Source of the DNA: Chloroflexota bacterium
GTDB taxonomy: Bacteria > Chloroflexota > Dehalococcoidia > Lucifugimonadales > UBA3495
Length of the DNA stretch: 64,000 nucleotides
Direction: 5' to 3'
NCBI GenBank assembly: GCA_009840135.1
Contig: VXOH01000159.1
Coordinates: 2,095 to 66,094 of the forward strand
Shown here piece after piece: positions 15,708 to 23,581 of the stretch. Numbering within the stretch: the stretch's first letter is position 1; every line of letters starts with the position of its first letter. A program made the position numbers and the translations under genes. Under the pieces are notes generated by a model that was given only the letters and a program-made list of their open reading frames with translations, was not told where the DNA came from and searched no databases.

Positions 15708-17612
15708 CTAATCCTCCAGCGTCGTAATATCTCCCGGGTCCAGGCCCAGTTCGTTGGCTTTCAGCAGGCGGCGCATGATTTTGCCCGAGCGCGTCTTGGG
15801 CAGGGCTGGAGTGAACTCGATCTCGGCAGGGACGGCGATGGGGCCCAGGACGCCGCGGACGTGGTTGCGCAGGGTGTCAATCATCAGGTCCGACGGGTCA
15901 TTGCCTACTCGCAGGGTTACGAAGGCTTTTATCACCTCGCCCCTCAGTTCGTCGGGCTTGCCGATTACCGCCGCCTCGGCTACCGAAGGGTTGGACACCA
16001 GGGCGCTTTCCACTTCCGCTGAACCGATGCGGTGGCCGGCCACGTTGAGCACGTCGTCGGCGCGGCCCACCACCATGTAGTAGCCGTCGGCGTCACGGAG
16101 GGCCACGTCGCCGGAGGAGTACACGCCCGGAATCTGGTTCCAGGTGTCGTTGTAGCGGTCGGGATCGCCCCATACGGTGCGGGAGAAGTGGGGGAAGGGA
16201 CGCCGGATGACCAGGAAACCGCCCTTGTCCGGTTCTTCAATGGGCTGGCCCTCCCGGTCCACTATGTCCATCAGCGCGCCAGGCAGGGGTTTTCCCACGC
16301 GCCCGGGGCGGGTTTCCATGGTGGCCATGGTGCCCAGGCAGGGGCCGCCGGTCTCGGTCTGCCACCAATTGTCCACGATGTGCGCCCACTCGCCGCTGCC
16401 GCAGATGTGCTCGTTGGCCCAGCGCAAAGCCTCGGGATTGAGCGGTTCTCCCGCGCAGGTAAGGAAGCGCAGGGAGCGCAGGTTGTACTGTTTGGCCGGT
16501 TCCTCGCCGTAGCGCATGAGCATCCGCACGGCGGTGGGGGCAGTAAATATGACGTTGACTCCGTACTTCTCGATGATTTCGTAGAAGACGGCGTTGTGGG
16601 GGTAGTCTGGGGCGCCCTCGCGGAAGACGGTGGTGGCCCCGGCCACCAGGGGCGCGTAAACGATGTAGCTGTGGCCCACCACCCAGCCGATGTCGGACAT
16701 GCACCAGAAGACGTCGTTGTCCTTGACGTCCCAGAAGTTCTTGAAGTGGTAGTGGGTGCCCACCATGTAACCGCCGTGGACGTGGACCACACCCTTGGGC
16801 TTGCCGGTGGTGCCGCTGGTGTACAGGATGTAGAGGGGGTCTTCGGCGTCCATAACCTCGGCTTCGCAATTGATGGACTGGCCGGCCAGCAGTTCCTCGA
16901 AGTCCACCTGCCCGTCCTTCAGGTCCTCGCGAGCCATTTCCCTTCGCCAGACCAGTACGGAAGTCAGGGAGTCGCAGCCCTCCACCGCCTCGTTGGCGAT
17001 GCCGATGAGGTCAACCTTGTTGCCGCGACGATAGCCCACGTCGCCGGTAATCAACAGCTTGGCCGCCGCGTCCTGGATGCGGTCCCGCAGGGAGCCGACG
17101 CTGAAACCGGCATATACCACGCTGTGGATGGCGCCGATGCGGGCGCAGGCCAGCATGGTAATGGCCCCCTCGGGGGTCAGGGGCATGTAAATGACGACGC
17201 GGTCGCCCTTGCCAATGCCCAGGGACTTGAGCCCGTTGGCGCAGCGGTTCACCTGCTGGGCCAGGCGGGCGTAGGTATAGACCTGCTCCGTGCCGTCCTC
17301 GCCCAACCAGATGAGGGCCGCCTTGTTGCGACGCTCGGTGGCCAGATGGCGGTCCAGGGCGTTATAGCAGATGTTGGTCTGCCCGCCGACGAACCACCGG
17401 AAGTTGGGGTATTCCCACTGGAACACCTGGTCCCAGCGACGGAACCAGTGGAGCCCCTCGGCGGCCTCGGCCCAGAAGCCCTCGGGGTCCTCGATGGAAC
17501 GGGCGTAAGTAGCGTCGTAGTCCTGCAGCGCCGCCTGCGCCGAAACATGGGGCGGCGCGGGTATTTCGCCGGATTCGCGAAGAAGGTTGTCAATCTGGCC
17601 TTGCTGAACCAT
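15708..17612 (-). CDS. acs: acetyl-CoA synthetase
   Basis: YTSGTTGKPKG AMP-binding motif and full-length Acs-like colinearity (WWQTETG, SGHRIG-type block, PKTRSGKIMRR). Start ATG 17612 behind AAGGAG. Confidence 0.9.
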   Translation of the reverse strand: MVQQGQIDNLLRESGEIPAPPHVSAQAALQDYDATYARSIEDPEGFWAEAAEGLHWFRRWDQVFQWEYPNFRWFVGGQTNICYNALDRHLATERRNKAALIWLGEDGTEQVYTYARLAQQVNRCANGLKSLGIGKGDRVVIYMPLTPEGAITMLACARIGAIHSVVYAGFSVGSLRDRIQDAAAKLLITGDVGYRRGNKVDLIGIANEAVEGCDSLTSVLVWRREMAREDLKDGQVDFEELLAGQSINCEAEVMDAEDPLYILYTSGTTGKPKGVVHVHGGYMVGTHYHFKNFWDVKDNDVFWCMSDIGWVVGHSYIVYAPLVAGATTVFREGAPDYPHNAVFYEIIEKYGVNVIFTAPTAVRMLMRYGEEPAKQYNLRSLRFLTCAGEPLNPEALRWANEHICGSGEWAHIVDNWWQTETGGPCLGTMATMETRPGRVGKPLPGALMDIVDREGQPIEEPDKGGFLVIRRPFPHFSRTVWGDPDRYNDTWNQIPGVYSSGDVALRDADGYYMVVGRADDVLNVAGHRIGSAEVESALVSNPSVAEAAVIGKPDELRGEVIKAFVTLRVGNDPSDLMIDTLRNHVRGVLGPIAVPAEIEFTPALPKTRSGKIMRRLLKANELGLDPGDITTLED

Positions 17613-17650
17613 GGTGTTGCTCCTTTGGGGGATTCTTTGGTTACTTGCGA

Positions 17651-18226
17651 TTATGTTTTGCTCGATTGGGGATTCAGTTCGTCTTGGGCCCATTCCAGGG
17701 GGTTGTTGACGATGTATTTTCTTATGGTATCAAGTTCGGTTTCGTTGCGAATGATGCGTTCGTAGTAATTGCGTTGCCAGACAGGTTGGCTTGGAGTGCC
17801 CCGCATCAGGTTGATCTGTTTGGTTGCGGCGGACTTGAAACCGGCGATTATGGAGCCAAGAGATTTTGGTGCTCGACTGATGCCTGTTGGGCGTTTGTGG
17901 GGTAGGGGCGCACGGCCGTGCGCCCCTACGTGGGCAGCACTGGCGCCTGCACCATTTCCCGTAATCACGATTATGCCGTGGATATGGTTGGGCATTACTT
18001 GAAACACATCCAACTCTATCTCTTGGCGTATCTGGGAGGTTCGGGTCCATTCTTCAAACACAGTCAGCCCGAAGCTGTTGAGGATCATTGTACCGTCCAC
18101 GATCTCACCAAACAGACACGTCCTATTCTGTGTGCAAATGGTAACGAAATAGGCCCCTGCCTGCGCGTAGTCATAATTCCTCAGGCGAATGGAACGGCGG
18201 CGGCGGTCGTTGCTGTGAATGTTCAT
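17651..18226 (-). CDS. REP-associated tyrosine transposase (RAYT, IS200/IS605-like Y1 HUH)
   Basis: HUH motif MPNHIHGII and catalytic-Tyr block WQRNYYERIIRN. The ORF stays open to GTG 18250. Contains a REP copy in frame. Confidence 0.75.
   Translation of the reverse strand: MNIHSNDRRRRSIRLRNYDYAQAGAYFVTICTQNRTCLFGEIVDGTMILNSFGLTVFEEWTRTSQIRQEIELDVFQVMPNHIHGIIVITGNGAGASAAHVGAHGRAPLPHKRPTGISRAPKSLGSIIAGFKSAATKQINLMRGTPSQPVWQRNYYERIIRNETELDTIRKYIVNNPLEWAQDELNPQSSKT
17902..17929. repeat. REP palindrome inside the RAYT ORF
   Basis: GTAGGGGCGCACGGCCGTGCGCCCCTAC, translated as VGAHGRAPLP in the RAYT frame. Confidence 0.85.
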
Positions 18227-18240
18227 ATTGGCTGGGGCCA

Positions 18241-18266
18241 GGGCAGACACGTAGGTCTGCCCCTAC
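18241..18266. repeat. REP-like palindrome (GCAGAC core) at the RAYT 5' end
   Basis: GGGCAGAC-ACGTAG-GTCTGCCC-CTAC. Confidence 0.6.
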
Positions 18267-18454
18267 CGATGGGTGTTTTCATTTACCAGCGTTGCATCTG
18301 TAGCAACGGCGCCTATATTCTAACCTTGCCTTACGGGTGGGACAATGTTTGGATGACACAGAGAATGATATATGGCATTCTATGGTAACGAATTGCGCCA
18401 CGCATTGATTGGTAAATATTCCAATAGCGGGTGCATGAGGACGGGAGCGTAACC

Positions 18455-18497
18455 ATGCCGTTAGATGACTTGGTCAAGGTAATCGAAACCCTCCAGC
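18455..18497 (+). pseudogene. 5' fragment (codons 1-14) of a transposon-disrupted restriction-endonuclease-like gene
   Basis: ATG 18455 behind GGGAG encodes MPLDDLVKVIETLQ, then runs into the transposon IR. Confidence 0.8.
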
Positions 18498-18522
18498 GGT
18501 TCCGTTGAGTTAGTGTTGGGTA

Positions 18523-19596
18523 GTGTATAATGCCCCTGTGGTATCTAGCAACTACATACAAGTTACCCGGCAAGCGGTTAGCTGTCCATATTGTGGCCAC
18601 TCCAAGATAGCGAAGTGGGGCAGCACGAAAGGCGGCAACCAGCGTTACCGGTGTTCCTCGAAAGAGTGCGGTCGGTCGTTCCTCGACACCGGGGCATTGA
18701 ACGGTTACCGGGTTCCCGCCGAGCAAATCGGTGCGGCAATCGGAATGTACTACCGGGGGATGTCCTACAAGCAAATCGGCGAGCAAATGGCCGACGCCTA
18801 CGATATGGACGAACCCGACAAGCGGGCAATTTATGAATGGGTGAGAGACCATTCGGAGGTTGCCGCCGAAGCAATGAAGGATTACCCGGCCCATACATCG
18901 GGCAAGTGGGTTGCCGACGAAATGCAGGTCAAGGTTGGCGGAGAGAACCTCTGGAACTGGAACGTAATGGACGCCGATACAAGGTACGTGCTGGCATCTC
19001 ACCTTTCCCCCAACCGAGACCAGATGGCAGCCGTTGCCGTGATGGAGAAGGCCGCCGCCGCCGCCGATGGGCCACCCAAGTCAATCACCACTGACAAGCT
19101 GCGCAGTTACGGGCCGGCCATTAAGAAAGTCTTTCCCCAAGCCGAGCATATCCAGTCCGAGGGACTGAAGGCCGAGATAAACAACAATATGTCGGAACGG
19201 CTGCAAGGAACCTTCCGGCAACGGGAAAAGACGTTGCGGGGTCTGGAAGGTCTGGAATCGGGGCAACGTTACCTTGACGGCTGGGTAGTCAATTACAATC
19301 TCTTCAAGGAACACGAAGGCGTTGATTACCAGACCCCGGCGGAAATGGCAAAGGTGAAGCCGCCCTTCACGGAATGGGCGGACGTGGTGAGAAATGCGCC
19401 GGCCTTGCAGGAAAGCAGGAAGGGCAAAGCGACTCCCTCGCTGGCCGATGTTGCCGACAAAGCGGCCCGGCCGAGCCCGGCTACCGCCCCAAAGACTACC
19501 TTTTTCATTCCCGATTCAACGGCCCGGCGCAGGCCGAAAGGCGAGAGGGAATCGGACGACCCGGACGACTTGCCTTTCTTATTCCGGCCCCGGTGA
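18523..19596 (+). CDS. DDE transposase, IS6/IS26-like with N-terminal zinc finger
   Basis: CPYCGH...RYRCSSKEC finger. DDE blocks ADEMQVKVGGENLWNWNVMDADTRYVL, SITTDKLRSYGPAI, NNNMSERLQG. Exact start uncertain (GTG 18523 or 18538). TTGAGT-15-TATAAT lies in or next to IRL. Confidence 0.7.
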   Translation: MYNAPVVSSNYIQVTRQAVSCPYCGHSKIAKWGSTKGGNQRYRCSSKECGRSFLDTGALNGYRVPAEQIGAAIGMYYRGMSYKQIGEQMADAYDMDEPDKRAIYEWVRDHSEVAAEAMKDYPAHTSGKWVADEMQVKVGGENLWNWNVMDADTRYVLASHLSPNRDQMAAVAVMEKAAAAADGPPKSITTDKLRSYGPAIKKVFPQAEHIQSEGLKAEINNNMSERLQGTFRQREKTLRGLEGLESGQRYLDGWVVNYNLFKEHEGVDYQTPAEMAKVKPPFTEWADVVRNAPALQESRKGKATPSLADVADKAARPSPATAPKTTFFIPDSTARRRPKGERESDDPDDLPFLFRPR

Positions 19597-19847
19597 GGGC
19601 ATTGCCAGTGGCTACCGAGCAACCAACCCCGGTCAAGGTCGCTGTGTCTTTCGACACTCCCCCGCCGGCCAAAGTATCGGGATTGTCGAAGCAAAGGCAA
19701 CGAGGCCCGGGGCTGGCAACTACAAAGACAAAGCCGGCCAAGCGGAAGGGCGGCAGACACCCGTTCTTTGGCCGGAAGGAAAGGCGATGATGTTGGCCAG
19801 CCTCGCTTTTTGCCTAATCCTTGTCGTGTTCCTGCTGGCCTTTTTCG

Positions 19848-20030
19848 TCAGCATACAAACAGCACGATTAAGGTCAACAGAACAAACACTCCGGCTGCTG
19901 ATATTCCAGCTCCGAAACTGCCAGTGCCAAACATTGCCCCATACCCCGCCACAGTCGCAGCAGATAAGGAACCGAGTATTACGATGGTTTTTGGAACCAA
20001 CCCGATAACGGTACAGAAGGCGTCAATCAC
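19848..20030 (-). CDS. small glycine-zipper membrane protein (tentative)
   Basis: GTG start overlaps the upstream stop (GTGA). Contains GYGAMFGTGSFGAGISAAG between hydrophobic segments. A competing + strand ORF from 19787 exists. Confidence 0.3.
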   Translation of the reverse strand: MIDAFCTVIGLVPKTIVILGSLSAATVAGYGAMFGTGSFGAGISAAGVFVLLTLIVLFVC

Positions 20031-20359
20031 GCCGTACCATTTTCATCATCGGTAGGTGGGTCTTGGTAGAGGTCAATGAGCAAAGCAATCCTGTCGAAAA
20101 CGCTGGTGTATGCCCTTCCTGCGGGGCCGCCCTCCATCCCGTCAATGAGCGCTTCCGGCAGCACGTTGAGAATATCCTGCGCCCGAACCCTCGCATTCTC
20201 GCTTTCATCCGCCGCAAGGAAGCGGAGCGCAAGAATAAGTTTGGCGATGATGTCCTCTAAAGCTACTTGCCGGGCTGCCCTCACATCTTGCCCGTCCGAT
20301 CCCCACAGTTCTTGGGTTTCGTAGTCATTATCAGGTTCCTGGTCATCTTCAAATGGCAT
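20027..20359 (-). CDS. acidic hypothetical protein (transposon cargo)
   Basis: Strong RBS GGGAGG 4 nt upstream of the ATG. Asp/Glu-rich termini (MPFEDDQEPDNDYETQE..., ...PPTDDENGTA). Confidence 0.6.
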   Translation of the reverse strand: MPFEDDQEPDNDYETQELWGSDGQDVRAARQVALEDIIAKLILALRFLAADESENARVRAQDILNVLPEALIDGMEGGPAGRAYTSVFDRIALLIDLYQDPPTDDENGTA

Positions 20360-20425
20360 AGTTCCTCCCTAATGTCCCCGCCGGTCTAGCTTCCACACTT
20401 TCGCCGGCGGGGATGTTCTTTGTTC

Positions 20426-21939
20426 CTATTGCCGCCTTCTCCTCCGCCGGCCCTCGGCCCGGCCCATCCTCAAGTTAGTGTCATCCTTCATCCAACCGTT
20501 GGCCCGGTTGTGTGTCTGTAGCCCTATCAGCGTGTACCTATCTCGCTTTTCCTTGTTGCACGGTGGGCAGAGCAGAGTAAGGTTTTCGTAAGCGTCAGTG
20601 CCGCCCTGGGAGCGGGGATTGATGTGGTCCACTTCCAATACCCTGGTATCAAACTGGTAGTTTGCCCCGCAACCCTGACAGAAAGGCCCAATGTCGGCCA
20701 GCAAGCGGTTATGGTGGGTTCGGGGCGGGGGAAGGCGCAAAGCGCGGCCCGTTGGAGTTCGGAGGGTCAGCGTGGCCGGCTCCCCGCCGTCTGTGCGCCG
20801 GGGTGGGCGAGTAAGGTAATGCACTTCGGGATTGGAGTCCACCAGCAATTGCCGGTTTTCCTGCATCCGGCGAATGACTTGACCATGCGCCCCGTCCCAA
20901 ATGTCCATGCCAACCCACTGCCGGCCCGAAAGCTCGGCGGCAACCGGGGTTGTGGCGCAACCACAGAACGGGTCTAAAACCAAGTCGCCGGGGTTGCTGC
21001 TGGCCTGAATGATTCTTTCGTAGAGGGGCAAGGGTTTCTGGGTGGGGTAGCCTGTATCCTCATTGCCTTTGGTCTCATTGATGTCGTCCCACAGTGTATT
21101 CCTAATCCGCCCCGCTTTTGGGCGGATTTTGCGCCACAACTTCCCGTCTTCCTCCACCAGCTCCCCGGCATTGTCCAGCTCCACCATTCGCTTCTGTCCA
21201 ACTTTCCAGCCTGAAGGATGGGGGGGGTGAATCCTCGGTATTCGTAGCACAAGTTAGGGCGTGGACTTGCGCTTGGCCGATTGTAGGCTAGGTCAAGGTA
21301 GTAAGGCCCGGTAGAGTCTTCGTGCCGAAAGGCCCGCATATAGTCGTGGGCGTAAGGTTCGAGTACACGGGTTTGGTCAAAGAATGAATCATCGGTCTTG
21401 CCGTAAAACAGCAGGGTATCGGTGTTGGAGTTGTACCGCCTTGCCTTGAATTGGGAACCTTTGAATCCCCGCCGGGTTCGTTTCCACACAATCGCATTTC
21501 GGAAGTTCTGCCGCCCAAAGATGGCGTCCAATAGGCACTTGCCCCACGCCCCTGCGGTATCATCCATGTGAAGGTAAATGCTGCCGTCCTCGGCAAGCAC
21601 CCGGTGCATTTCCAGCAGCCGGACACCCAGCCAACAAAGGTAGGCGGCCATATCATCACCATAAGCAGTCTTGGCAGCAGTAATGACCGCCCACACTTCC
21701 GGCTGGTCTCTCTGAATGGCAATCAGCCAATCATCGTGAACGTCCTCATCCCACCGCCAGCGGTCTTGAAACTGGGCGCCACTGGCCAGACTGTCCGGGG
21801 TAGCATGAAAATCCCGTCCTTTGTTGAAGGGCGGGTCGGTGGCAATTAGGTTGACCGTCCCGGAGTTCATTCCCCGGAGAAACTCAAGGTTGTCTCCGTG
21901 GTAAAGAGTGCGGTTATCGAAGTTGCGGGTTGGCGGCAA
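20426..21939 (-). CDS. beta-class N6A/N4C DNA methyltransferase fused to a C-terminal HNH nuclease, interrupted by a frameshift at a C8 tract
   Basis: ORF 21939-20974 carries motif IV (IATDPPFNKG). ORF 21250-20426 carries GYPTQKP, motif I (VLDPFCGCATT) and HNH (DHINPRSQGG...NLTLLCPPCNKEK). The frames switch at G8 (21220-21227). Confidence 0.75.
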
Positions 21940-21941
21940 AA

Positions 21942-21976
21942 TAGTCTCCCCAGTTCTGCTAAACTGGGGAGACTAT
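21942..21976. promoter_or_regulatory. perfect 15-bp-arm palindrome covering the methyltransferase RBS
   Basis: ATAGTCTCCCCAGTT-CTGCT-AACTGGGGAGACTAT. The minus-strand GGGGAG RBS and TTG start (21939) lie in or next to one arm. Confidence 0.45.
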
Positions 21977-22016
21977 AGCACAGGGGCCAACACTAACTCA
22001 ACGGAACCCCTCCAGC

Positions 22017-22930
22017 AGCGCATCCGCGACCACGGCGATTCCCTGCGCCAATACGAAGCTCGCACTCGCGTGGCCCTGATTGATCCATTGCTGACGGCGC
22101 TGGGATGGGACGTGGCGAACCCCGGGTTGGTTACTGCGGAGTACCAAGTCGGTGGTGGTAGAGCGGACTATGCGCTACTGTCTGATGATGGGAACCCTAA
22201 GGCTTTCGTTGAAGCCAAGCGCTTGGGTGAACCATTAGAGGCAATAAAGTATCAGGAGCAAGTGTTTACCTACGCATTGATCCAGCAGGTTAGATATGCG
22301 GGTTTGACTGATGGCAACTTGTGGGTTCTCGACAATGTTGCGGAATTTTCCGGCGGTGAGCGCCGCAAGCTGGAAGTTTCAATCGCTCTAGAACCAGCAT
22401 TTCAATGTGCTCTGAAGCTCTTGCTGCTTTGGCGGCCCAACCTTGCCTCGGGGAGGCCGGTGGAGGCAAATAAGCCGATTTTGTCCGATGGCCCTAGTTC
22501 GGAACTTGACAATGGTGGTGGCGCAACAGTTTGCCCTCCTCCCCCTCCACCCTCTGGAGATTGGAAACCTCTTGGCATACTACAGCATGTAACCGGTGGT
22601 CCCCAACCCACAGCAATTCGGTTCTCCGACGGTGAAGAGCGGGATACGTCCTATTGGTGGCACATCCTATTTTATACTGCAGAGTGGTTGGTGCAGAATG
22701 GCAAGCTCACACCTCAACATTGCCCAGTTAAATTGACTAATGGGCAGAGATATACTGTCAATCACCAGGCTGTCCACGCCGACGATAAGCCTTTCACTGC
22801 TCCCCGACCCTTGTCTAATGGCCTTTTCTGTGAAAGCAACTTCAACGCTGTTAACAACTTGACCCACACTAAGCGGCTGTTAGAGTATTTTGAAGAAGAC
22901 TTGGAAACAATCCTTCTCCGATTCAGTTAG
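22017..22930 (+). pseudogene. 3' part of the disrupted restriction-endonuclease-like gene (HSDR_N/Mrr-type PD-(D/E)xK N-domain plus unknown C-domain)
   Basis: QRIRDHGDSLRQYEARTRVALIDPLLTALGWDV...GGGRADYALL...AFVEAKRLG matches the type I R-subunit N-terminal nuclease pattern. In frame with the 18455 fragment once the element is removed. Confidence 0.7.
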
Positions 22931-22977
22931 AATTTCGTTGCAGCCCGAAAGAAGAGCCACCAGGAAACAAGAACAAC

Positions 22978-23331
22978 ATGGGAACTTTCAGCGTTGACGT
23001 GGAAATAGGCGACCCGGAGGGACGGGAATTCGTCGTTGTTAACGCGTTGGTGGACACTGGCGCCACCTATACCGCCTTGCCGGAGAGTTTGCTACAAGGG
23101 CTGGGAGTTCTGCCCCGTACCAGCCGCCGGTTCCGGCTGGCCGATGGGCGAGTCATGAGGCTACCGCTGGGGGCAACTGTCATGCGCCTGGCGGAAGAGG
23201 AAATGCCCGTACCGGTGATTTTTGCGCCGGAGGACGCTAGCCCCCTGCTGGGGGCCACGGCATTGGAAGCCTTCAGCCTTATGGCGGATCCCAATGAGGG
23301 CAGGCTGGTTCCCGTGGATGCGTTGCTGTAG
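22978..23331 (+). CDS. retropepsin-like aspartic protease (clan AA), paralog 1
   Basis: ALVDTGATYTALP active-site block and LLGATALEAF flap/dimer region. 117 aa. Confidence 0.7.
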   Translation: MGTFSVDVEIGDPEGREFVVVNALVDTGATYTALPESLLQGLGVLPRTSRRFRLADGRVMRLPLGATVMRLAEEEMPVPVIFAPEDASPLLGATALEAFSLMADPNEGRLVPVDALL

Positions 23332-23581
23332 GTTTTGGGAATCTCGTTCTATACGATACCCCATACCCTGTTCCCAAAGAAAGGCGTCTATGGCAAAGAG
23401 AAAAGGATATGGCCAGGCGCCGCCGAGGTCGCCCCGATTCCGCACCTCGTGCAAGCGATTCGCCCCCAACTGTTGCGCCCCGGAACGCTCCCAGATGAAC
23501 CGTTGGCACCGTCAAGCCAACAAACGCTTCTGCCGAGACTTCGACCACGAGTAAATCAGGCCCACAGGAAAAGGATTCAGA

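Follow-up and report, generated by a model that had tools for sequence, protein, structure and literature searches.

An IS6/IS26-type transporter insertion sequence with a putatively phase-variable methylase–nuclease cargo interrupts a restriction-endonuclease-like gene in a sponge-associated member of the Dehalococcoidia

In a 64,000-nucleotide stretch of contig VXOH01000159.1 (hereafter the window, i.e., the whole stretch of DNA analyzed), which comes from a sponge-associated member of the Dehalococcoidia, a 3,511-bp element is inserted in codon 15 of a chromosomal PD-(D/E)xK nuclease gene, with duplication of 8 bp of the target. We consider it highly probable that this element is a transporter insertion sequence (IS) of a Dehalococcoidia-specific, zinc-ribbon branch of the IS6/IS26 family, and that it carries a putatively phase-variable cargo resembling a restriction-modification (R-M) system. 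The contigs found to be related to the window likewise come from sponge metagenomes. An earlier note on this DNA, made from the sequence alone, had proposed inverted repeats (IRs), a duplication and a segment length for such an element, and these hold to the base:

18498-18519, + strand: left inverted repeat (IRL), 22 bp, GGTTCCGTTGAGTTAGTGTTGG, exact reverse complement of the right one
21987-22008, - strand: right inverted repeat (IRR), exact reverse complement of IRL
18490-18497, no strand: left copy of the 8-bp target-site duplication (TSD), CCTCCAGC, abutting IRL on the outside
22009-22016, no strand: right copy of the 8-bp TSD, CCTCCAGC, abutting IRR on the outside
18455-18497, + strand: 5' fragment of the nuclease gene, codons 1-14 and the first base of codon 15
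22017-22930, + strand: 3' part of the nuclease gene, with the PD-(D/E)xK core (D65...E80-x-K82) and the C-terminal domain

With up to three mismatches allowed, the IR matched two sites in the window (0 in 100 shuffles), and the hunt for further copies that the earlier note had advised returned, within the 64 kb, only the two ends of the element. The element has a G+C content of 57%, compared to 61% for the window. As that note had also predicted, excision of 18498-22016 restores an intact gene: joining 18455-18497 to 22017-22930 yields 957 nt, in frame, encoding 318 aa. With 19 homologs aligned, the restored N-terminus, MPLDDLVKVIETLQ followed by QRIRDHGDSLRQ, fits their consensus MPLDDLVxVIETLQxRIxDHGDSLRQ through the junction, and several invariant positions lie on either side of the restored join (...VIETLQ followed by QRIRDHGDSLRQ...). 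The note would have given up the interrupted gene if no full-length homolog of the nuclease existed; among 5.8 billion proteins searched, 1,481 homologs were found, and the best 120 of these are mostly 305-325 aa long, with 95-100% query cover and up to 61% identity. Through the insertion, the remainder of the protein is cut off from its 14 conserved N-terminal residues and from the start of the gene itself. Past the 22-bp IR, the two ends share CCCCTGTG(G/C)TAT (window 18520-18544 and 21975-21986), and a perfect TATAAT arises at the left end from a 12-bp insert, GTAGTGTATAAT. An IR of ~36 bp was probably the ancestral state.

An assembly chimera, i.e., a repeated element misplaced into the wrong context, might be suspected because the source is a metagenome assembly, because an independent assembly of the same sequence is broken close to the insertion, and because the flanks of a sibling element (L001, see below) do not match each other. 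The independent assembly (L087; ENA ERZ23491722, scaffold ENGE20-1_SAMN12347673_METAG-scaffold_546, 52 kb) is 100% identical to the window across the compared part of the element, the right junction, and the flank, and includes a 100-N scaffold gap with a 55-bp contig-end overlap at window 22065-22119 (L087:2799-3008), 57-111 bp to the right of IRR. However, this break falls at a conserved stretch within the nuclease gene, which is multi-copy, rather than at the element boundary, and probably reflects a graph break due to paralogs of that gene. Both flanks of the window element also belong to one gene, whose protein is conserved across the junction, and the surrounding gene order (acetyl-CoA synthetase, aspartyl-protease-like gene, nuclease, luciferase-like oxidoreductase, PQQ-repeat protein) is kept around the uninterrupted ortholog in L096. 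Taken together, the exact duplication, the in-frame restoration, and the conserved gene order make an assembly chimera very unlikely, to the point where we give it almost no weight.

Just inside IRL, the element encodes its transposase:

18523-19596, + strand: transposase gene, 357 aa, with an N-terminal IS1/IS1595-type zinc ribbon and an IS6-type DDE core (D132, D191, E225, R232)

The IS6-type assignment made in the earlier note is supported by family models, as this protein scores 129.6 bits against the NCBIfam equivalog model NF033587 transpos_IS6 (cut-off 125, E = 1.2e-37) and 72 bits against Pfam PF13610 DDE_Tnp_IS240 (cut-off 27, 7e-20). Its zinc ribbon (residues 21-55) matches the four-Cys, IS1/IS1595-type model NF050000 at 49 bits (cut-off 28), and its score against the NCBIfam IS1 family model, 56.8 bits, is far under the cut-off of 100. 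We identified 994 homologs, named IS6 family transposase, in Dehalococcoidia/Chloroflexota; the protein is 26-29% identical to annotated plasmid IS6 transposases, and all annotated plasmid matches belong to the IS6 family. Across 27 aligned sequences, D132, D191, and E225 are invariant, 33 residues separate the second D from the E, and R232 stands at E+7, which fits the DD(33-34)E pattern described for the IS6 family (PMC6807381). Besides this spacing, the published description of IS6/IS26 includes K or R at E+7, a signature E-DH---K or E-SH---R, and GGnnnTG ends (PMC6807381). The duplication of CCTCCAGC has the 8-bp length typical of the family, and the arrangement of one transposase gene with passenger genes inside one IR pair and one TSD is that of a transporter IS. 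IRL holds a -35-like TTGAGT (18505-18510), separated by a 15-nt spacer from TATAAT at 18526-18531, and these two boxes may form the promoter of the transposase gene. Two open reading frames (ORFs) overlapping the 3' end of the transposase gene, 19374-19790 and 19394-20008, have no family hits and were not counted as genes; the tblastn matches of these alternative-frame ORFs are due to nucleotide conservation.

We then evaluated how widespread such elements are, by scanning one genome per species with the transposase alignment as query. This yielded 165 tblastn-confirmed loci, of which 80 were examined, all of them in metagenome-assembled genomes (MAGs) of Dehalococcoidia or Chloroflexota, including a SAR202 bin. 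A script anchored on GGTTNSGTT ends delimited 55 elements (54 public ones and the window's), with ends GGTTCCGTT... / GGTT[CT]CGTT..., so that the window element is not a one-off but a member of a sizeable clade; the further relatives include at least 54 delimited elements, ~50 of them different. The elements range from 1,366 to 9,841 bp, with transposase-only relatives (L057, L061, and L072) at 1,366-1,461 bp, and cargo is found on either side of the transposase gene. Of the 55 delimited elements, 34, among them that of the window, lie between perfect 8-bp duplications. Identical copies without duplications were also seen (L023 versus L024/L025), as would be expected, by analogy, from IS26-like intramolecular events or from recombination between copies. 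The window element is thus one member of a large, apparently undescribed clade of IS6-type transporter ISs in Dehalococcoidia.

A different reading would keep the zinc-ribbon DDE transposon and change its mechanism, which would be nearer to that of IS1/IS1595, with simple insertion instead of IS26-like transposition. The N-terminal zinc ribbon and the sub-threshold hit to the IS1 model point in this direction, as do the GGnnnTG-type ends, which are common to IS1 (PMC6807381), the clean single insertions with TSDs represented by the 34 duplication-flanked elements, and the low identity of the zinc-finger IS6 clades to IS26 (at most ~26%). On the other hand, the catalytic core scores above the cut-off of the IS6 equivalog model and below that of the IS1 model, the annotated plasmid hits are all of the IS6 family, and some copies lack TSDs or share one half-site (L001, L023 versus L024/L025), as after IS26-like events. 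We therefore regard an IS1-like mechanism as unlikely and retain the IS6/IS26 assignment.

Among described elements, the closest by description is ISDsp3 of Dehalococcoides sp. BAV1, the sole IS6 member in ISfinder listed with a passenger gene (PMC7986276), and a "solo" IS6/IS26 member of 1,456 bp with an 8-bp TSD and a 319-aa transposase (PMC7986276, PMC6807381). The statement in the earlier note that classical IS6 elements lack passengers thus stands for the ~0.8-kb norm, but ISDsp3 is already one passenger case in ISfinder. In this comparison, made by description only, ISDsp3 shares with the window element the bacterial class, the IS6 assignment, the 8-bp TSD, and a long transposase, and its length matches that of the passenger-free relatives reported here. 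However, its one passenger is hypothetical and its zinc finger is reportedly not intact, whereas the window element spans 3.5 kb, has a four-Cys zinc ribbon, and carries a methylase-nuclease operon. IS26 and IS257 resemble the window element in that the same models hit their DDE core, and in the G at IR positions 1, 2, and 7, the 8-bp TSD, the DD(33-34)E spacing, and K/R at E+7. They differ in being ~0.8 kb long and free of a zinc ribbon, with 14-bp IRs and only one ORF, of 220-250 aa; in addition, their cargo lies between two IS copies as a pseudo-compound transposon, while that of the window lies inside a single element. Finally, the zinc-finger IS6 clades VII/VIII (h/i; ISCpe7, ISTet2), recorded only in Clostridia (PMC7986276, PMC6807381), are similar to the window element in their N-terminal zinc-finger extension, 340-450-aa transposase, and 8-bp TSD, and dissimilar in belonging to Firmicutes, measuring 1.2-1.8 kb, and having no passengers. 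Overall, most features used to judge IS6/IS26 membership are present, the exceptions being the compact single-ORF layout and two fine sequence signatures, and the element is best filed at the ISDsp3-like, zinc-finger periphery of IS6/IS26, as a transporter IS.

The passenger module lies on the opposite strand to the transposase gene and includes, reading inward from IRR, a promoter-like site, a hairpin, a methylase-HNH gene, a GC-rich hairpin, and two small ORFs:

21972-22001, - strand: inward promoter-like site, -35 TTGAGT in IRR, 18-nt spacer, extended -10 TGcTATAGT
21941-21976, - strand: perfect hairpin with 15-bp arms, then UUUU into the TTG start of the methylase gene; RNA fold -33 kcal/mol, z = -6.4
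20426-21939, - strand: methylase-HNH gene, beta-class N6/N4 DNA methyltransferase with C-terminal HNH, frameshifted copy
20429-21956, - strand: exchangeable cargo slot, from the methylase stop codon to the 5' hairpin, replaced in L001
20376-20412, no strand: GC-rich hairpin, CCCCGCCGG...CCGGCGGGG, between the methylase stop and orf110, in the backbone common to L001
20027-20359, - strand: orf110, 110 aa, pI 4.05, 25 D/E versus 8 K/R, good Shine-Dalgarno (GGGAGG-N6-ATG)
19848-20030, - strand: orf60, 60 aa, hydrophobic (GRAVY 1.77), start overlapping the orf110 stop by 4 bp

The earlier note had listed a methyltransferase-HNH gene and two small ORFs as cargo. This content is confirmed, except that the methyltransferase-HNH is not one ORF: a homopolymer frameshift splits it into minus-strand ORFs 20974-21939 and 20426-21250. 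The methylase domain PF01555 is divided between these two ORFs, the HNH domain PF01844 was detected as well, the C-terminal 80 residues forming a canonical HNH, and the order of motifs, with motif IV (DPPF) ahead of motif I (FCGCATT), reads as that of the beta class. Relatives in the PDB are MboIIA, CcrM, and RsrI, and also DpnA. Adding one C produces a 504-aa protein that aligns over its full length with intact homologs of 503/504 aa, at 85% and 82% identity; this repaired protein contains DPPF, FCGCATT, and CxxC...DH...N...CxxC, i.e., a methyltransferase and a nuclease in a single chain, and intact homologs of 503-545 aa number in the thousands.

The promoter-like site in IRR is a consensus match only, of a kind expected by chance 2.0 times per region. 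Since a transcript from this IR promoter would start inside the first arm of the 5' hairpin, the terminator-like hairpin would form only in transcripts reading through from outside. IS10 is known for its protection from outside transcription, and the arrangement seen here may be analogous. The hairpin is kept in L001 via compensatory changes. No structured RNA was matched in Rfam within 17500-23500. Searches with orf110 and orf60 against Pfam, NCBIfam, and PADLOC returned no match. When 1.84 billion cluster representatives were scanned exhaustively with HMMER, the orf110 family proved tiny (8 hits including its own cluster at E <= 0.001, ~5 of them small proteins of 107-138 aa), while orf60, predicted to encode a small membrane peptide, is kept only in the sibling L001 and in L087. 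We also considered orf110 as an acidic DNA-mimic or anti-restriction protein and set this aside, as nothing apart from its pI supports it.

The sibling element L001 (L001:1541-5125), from another sponge metagenome, has identical IRs, a 98% identical transposase, and different flanks. Its backbone, which includes orf110 and orf60, is mostly 92-100% identical to that of the window element per 100 bp outside the cargo slot, compared to 25-45% inside, where the slot gene is an unrelated N6_N4_Mtase fused to an Mrr_cat (PD-(D/E)xK) nuclease and has a C16 tract near its 5' end. We rejected L001 as a second clean insertion because its flanks are unmatched; it shows the element in another context. Across the family, homologs of the methylase lie inside ~20 elements. 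A passenger census, in which 92 passenger ORFs from 33 distinct TSD-bounded elements were compared with Pfam, returned the following domains:

HNH: 10 ORFs
N6_N4_Mtase: 8 ORFs
N6_Mtase: 5 ORFs
Mrr_cat: 2 ORFs
Endonuclease VII: 2 ORFs
GmrSD: 1 ORF

Four N6_Mtase proteins were checked singly and are 671-827 aa, Eco57I/MmeI-like type IIG proteins, two of which (L011 and L053) also carry an N-terminal HsdR-N (HSDR_N_2) nuclease domain. Judged from their domains, most of the passengers thus appear to be methylase-nuclease enzymes made as one polypeptide (MTase-HNH, MTase-Mrr, and type IIG), similar to the single-polypeptide R-M enzymes of types IIC, IIG, and IIL (BpuSI, MmeI, DrdV, Eco57I) in combining methylase and nuclease in one chain. 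Since three methylase-plus-nuclease architectures occur in the same vehicle, the passenger function would be that of a compact R-M or addiction module, and not of an orphan methylase with an incidental HNH. R-M genes are established as selfish, mobile addiction modules. We know of no characterized enzyme with an N6_N4_Mtase plus C-terminal HNH (or Mrr_cat) architecture; no PDB entry combining N6_N4_Mtase with a C-terminal HNH or Mrr_cat was found, and the literature searched held no case of an R-M enzyme carried inside an IS6-type element.

The frameshift in the methylase-HNH gene lies in a homopolymer whose length differs between orthologs:

21220-21227, - strand: candidate homopolymer switch, C8 on the coding strand (G8 on the + strand), codon ~238, the only G/C run of at least 8 in the window
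Window: C8, out of frame
L088 (codon 237), L089 and L090 (codon 238), intact orthologs: C9 at the same codon, in frame
L015 (L015:12377-12386), SAR202 ortholog with 76% DNA identity: C10 at the same codon, out of frame
L091, related copy without a nearby IS: tract interrupted (ATCCCTCCC), in frame

As in a contingency tract, this simple-sequence run sits inside an ORF, varies in length between alleles, and sets the frame (C8/C9/C10). Runs of at least 8 G or C occur at 0.29 per kb in the methylase genes versus 0.009 per kb in the remaining 1.4 Mb, a ~31-fold enrichment that points to phase variation. Other element-borne methylases contain runs of G13, G17, C13, C14, or C16, which lie at the 5' end, around codon 90, or in the linker that joins methylase and HNH (~codon 378). 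A second tract (C7-C14) was found in the methylase-HNH linker of four loci (L010:~6440, L029:~8761, L080:8517, L083:9168), and in all four the frameshift leaves the methylase whole and removes only the HNH; truncated database proteins P0256, P0260, P0293, and P0303 similarly diverge right after the linker Pro-Pro. This suggests that the linker tract may act as a separate switch between an R-M state and an orphan-methylase state. We read the methylase-HNH cargo as undergoing slipped-strand phase variation, with the window copy likely OFF. In L083, two diverged methylase-HNH copies in inverted orientation (L083:8131-9150 and L083:15209-16504), one in the element and one ~4 kb outside, share an 80-bp inverted repeat at their 5' ends, and a C19 run lies at 20981.

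Alternatively, the frameshift could be no switch at all, but a sequencing or assembly error at a homopolymer, or the first step in the decay of a dead passenger. There is one allele per locus, the C8 and C10 alleles stem from Illumina-style assemblies and the C9 alleles include long-read-style contigs, and passenger genes in IS elements often decay; indeed, L006/L056 (7524-7900) holds an internally deleted remnant of the same gene, in which residues 3-63 are joined to 435-490 at 85-89% identity. Importantly, however, the tract stands at the same codon with lengths of 8, 9, and 10 across orthologs that are only 76% identical in DNA, and runs of 13-17 G or C, which cannot be assembly artefacts, turn up repeatedly across methylase lineages, at three or four different sites. 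The enrichment relative to flanking DNA and the fact that, aside from the single-base shift, both gene halves keep open frames and strong domain scores also argue against error or decay, which we consider a minority possibility, albeit one to be taken seriously, next to phase variation. The L006/L056 remnant is located ~2 kb upstream of a 77%-identical transposase gene.

Phasevarions based on type III mod genes offer a parallel, as there too a homopolymer inside a methylase ORF sets the frame, with ON and OFF alleles among close relatives. The phase-variable methyltransferases and R-M systems known to us are chromosomal genes of host-adapted pathogens. By contrast, the genes described here are nuclease-fused transposon passengers in marine or sponge-associated Dehalococcoidia, for which switching is deduced from alleles, and a second, linker tract appears to toggle the nuclease domain alone.

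A number of observations weigh against the overall reading of a Dehalococcoidia-specific IS6/IS26 transporter element with phase-variable cargo. For the transposase, the margin over the NF033587 cut-off is small, the signature E-DH---K / E-SH---R reads ERLQGTFR here (RL replacing DH/SH), and Harmer and Hall doubt that the zinc-finger clades belong with IS26. The IR starts with GGTTCCG, which has G1, G2, and G7 but a C, not the T of GGnnnTG, at position 6, and the 3,511-bp element, with a transposase and three passenger ORFs, departs from the compact single-ORF layout of 0.7-0.9 kb, or of 1.2-1.8 kb among zinc-finger clades. L001 has no TSD, its flanks CCGGCAGG and GGTGGGGG showing no duplication, and a homopolymer miscall is possible in the short-read-style assemblies that provided the C8 and C10 alleles. 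Finally, searches of JGI metagenome contigs returned 0 matches both for the exact 22-bp IR and for the exact empty site TCGAAACCCTCCAGCAGCGCATCC. The predicted uninterrupted junction would read ...GAAACCCTCCAGCAGCGC..., and the closest uninterrupted gene is the syntenic ortholog in L096, which at 59% identity is not an allele.

Next, we examined the interrupted gene itself. The restored protein has an N-terminal PD-(D/E)xK domain in which D65 and E80-x-K82 are invariant or nearly so. It scores 26 bits against Pfam HSDR_N, a PDB profile search returned only a type I HsdR fragment (3h1t, 1.4e-5), and its AlphaFold model (pLDDT 90) gives a fold match to the BpuSI, DrdV, and HsdR nuclease domains, while the family-model scan gave no match to Mrr_cat. 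Of the HSDR_N/Mrr-type nuclease proposed in the earlier note, the HsdR-N part is therefore upheld and the Mrr part is not, and describing the target as restriction-endonuclease-like, of a predicted HsdR-N/BpuSI-like type, is justified. The C-terminal 130 residues fold confidently in a separate model (pLDDT 94), for which the only match is SeqA-C, a reader of hemimethylated GATC, at a weak and non-significant level (E = 0.97, TM 0.50/0.55). A 340-aa ORF (window 21908-22930, + strand) starts in the element, crosses IRR, and continues in frame into the nuclease gene. Because of this ORF, complete loss of function is something we infer only, and the cell might in principle still produce a nuclease with an altered N-terminus.

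We rebuilt the empty sites of 35 TSD-flanked relatives and found diverse, often non-coding targets, including genes for a transporter-binding protein, a TPR protein, Calx-beta and cadherin-like proteins, a glycosyltransferase, another transposase, and one type IIG-like gene, along with non-coding DNA. A tblastn search over all loci found no second element in or beside a homolog of this nuclease. Given these diverse sites and the lack of a second insertion in a nuclease homolog, we dropped the idea of targeted insertion into nuclease genes. The suggestion in the earlier note that a methylase-bearing transposon disarms a resident nuclease is attractive but finds no support as a targeted or selected event, with the 35 empty sites lying in unrelated genes or intergenic DNA and the methylase being OFF here. 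In a stronger form of that suggestion, the target would be a methylation-dependent (type IV-like) nuclease that attacks cargo-modified DNA, so that only cells with a disrupted copy survived. This would be in line with the restriction-type PD-(D/E)xK domain of the target, the confidently folded C-terminal domain whose best, although weak, structural match is the hemimethylated-GATC domain of SeqA, the DPPF motif and adenine-methylase relatives of the cargo methylase, and the location of the target gene in a region that is variable and holds toxin-antitoxin and R-M genes in related genomes. However, the SeqA match is not significant, only one other restriction-type gene occurs among the 35 rebuilt sites, none of the other elements interrupts a homolog of this nuclease, the window copy of the methylase is OFF, and the in-frame ORF 21908-22930 leaves complete inactivation unproven. 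Hence, we judge such a selected insertion improbable.

In its surroundings, the interrupted nuclease gene is directly preceded by an IS200-like Y1 (tyrosine) transposase gene (window 17651-18250, - strand; Y1_Tnp 25.2 bits, cut-off 23), which overlaps the ORF called as acetyl-CoA synthetase at its 3' end and represents a second mobile-element-type gene at the site. Uninterrupted nuclease orthologs were detected in the same neighborhood beside acetyl-CoA synthetase in L096 (L096:7593-13239) and L094 (L094:3643-8052). The neighborhood differs between genomes, with HicB antitoxins, an XcyI-type R-M pair, and a HEPN gene, and resembles a small defence or variable island.

If the analogy with IS26 holds, the element would move by replicative "copy-in" cointegrate formation, the hallmark mechanism of the family, to be resolved by recombination. 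Two inward promoters, one driving the transposase gene and the other the cargo, would each take their -35 box from an IR, and the cargo may help the element persist as a compact R-M or addiction module, which cell lineages could switch on and off by slipped-strand mispairing at the homopolymer. A broader and more tentative possibility, which we think rather doubtful as a whole, is that this Dehalococcoidia IS6-type lineage is specialized as a set of vehicles for single-gene R-M enzymes, held in an exchangeable, hairpin-bounded slot near one IR and subject to two kinds of homopolymer switch, one in the methylase that would turn the whole enzyme off and one in the linker that would turn off the nuclease and leave an orphan methylase; the insertion described here may then also have been selected for disarming a methyl-reading nuclease. 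If true, these elements would amount to "transposable phasevarions", i.e., mobile, phase-variable epigenetic and defence modules in uncultured marine symbionts.

There is precedent for transporter ISs, for mobile R-M genes, and for phase-variable methylases taken singly, while the literature searched contained no report of their combination in an IS6-type clade of uncultured Dehalococcoidia, with exchangeable single-chain methylase-nuclease cargo and homopolymer switches. Minimal 0.8-kb ISs that flank antibiotic resistance and thereby spread it are what IS6/IS26 is best known for, and R-M genes are reportedly enriched in sponge symbionts. The natural methylase-HNH and methylase-Mrr fusions found in these elements are on offer for tests of specificity and activity. 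If confirmed, our findings would extend the repertoire of the IS6 family and of transporter ISs, provide a concrete route for R-M genes to move within and between genomes, and place phase variation of the contingency-locus type on a mobile element in uncultured marine bacteria.

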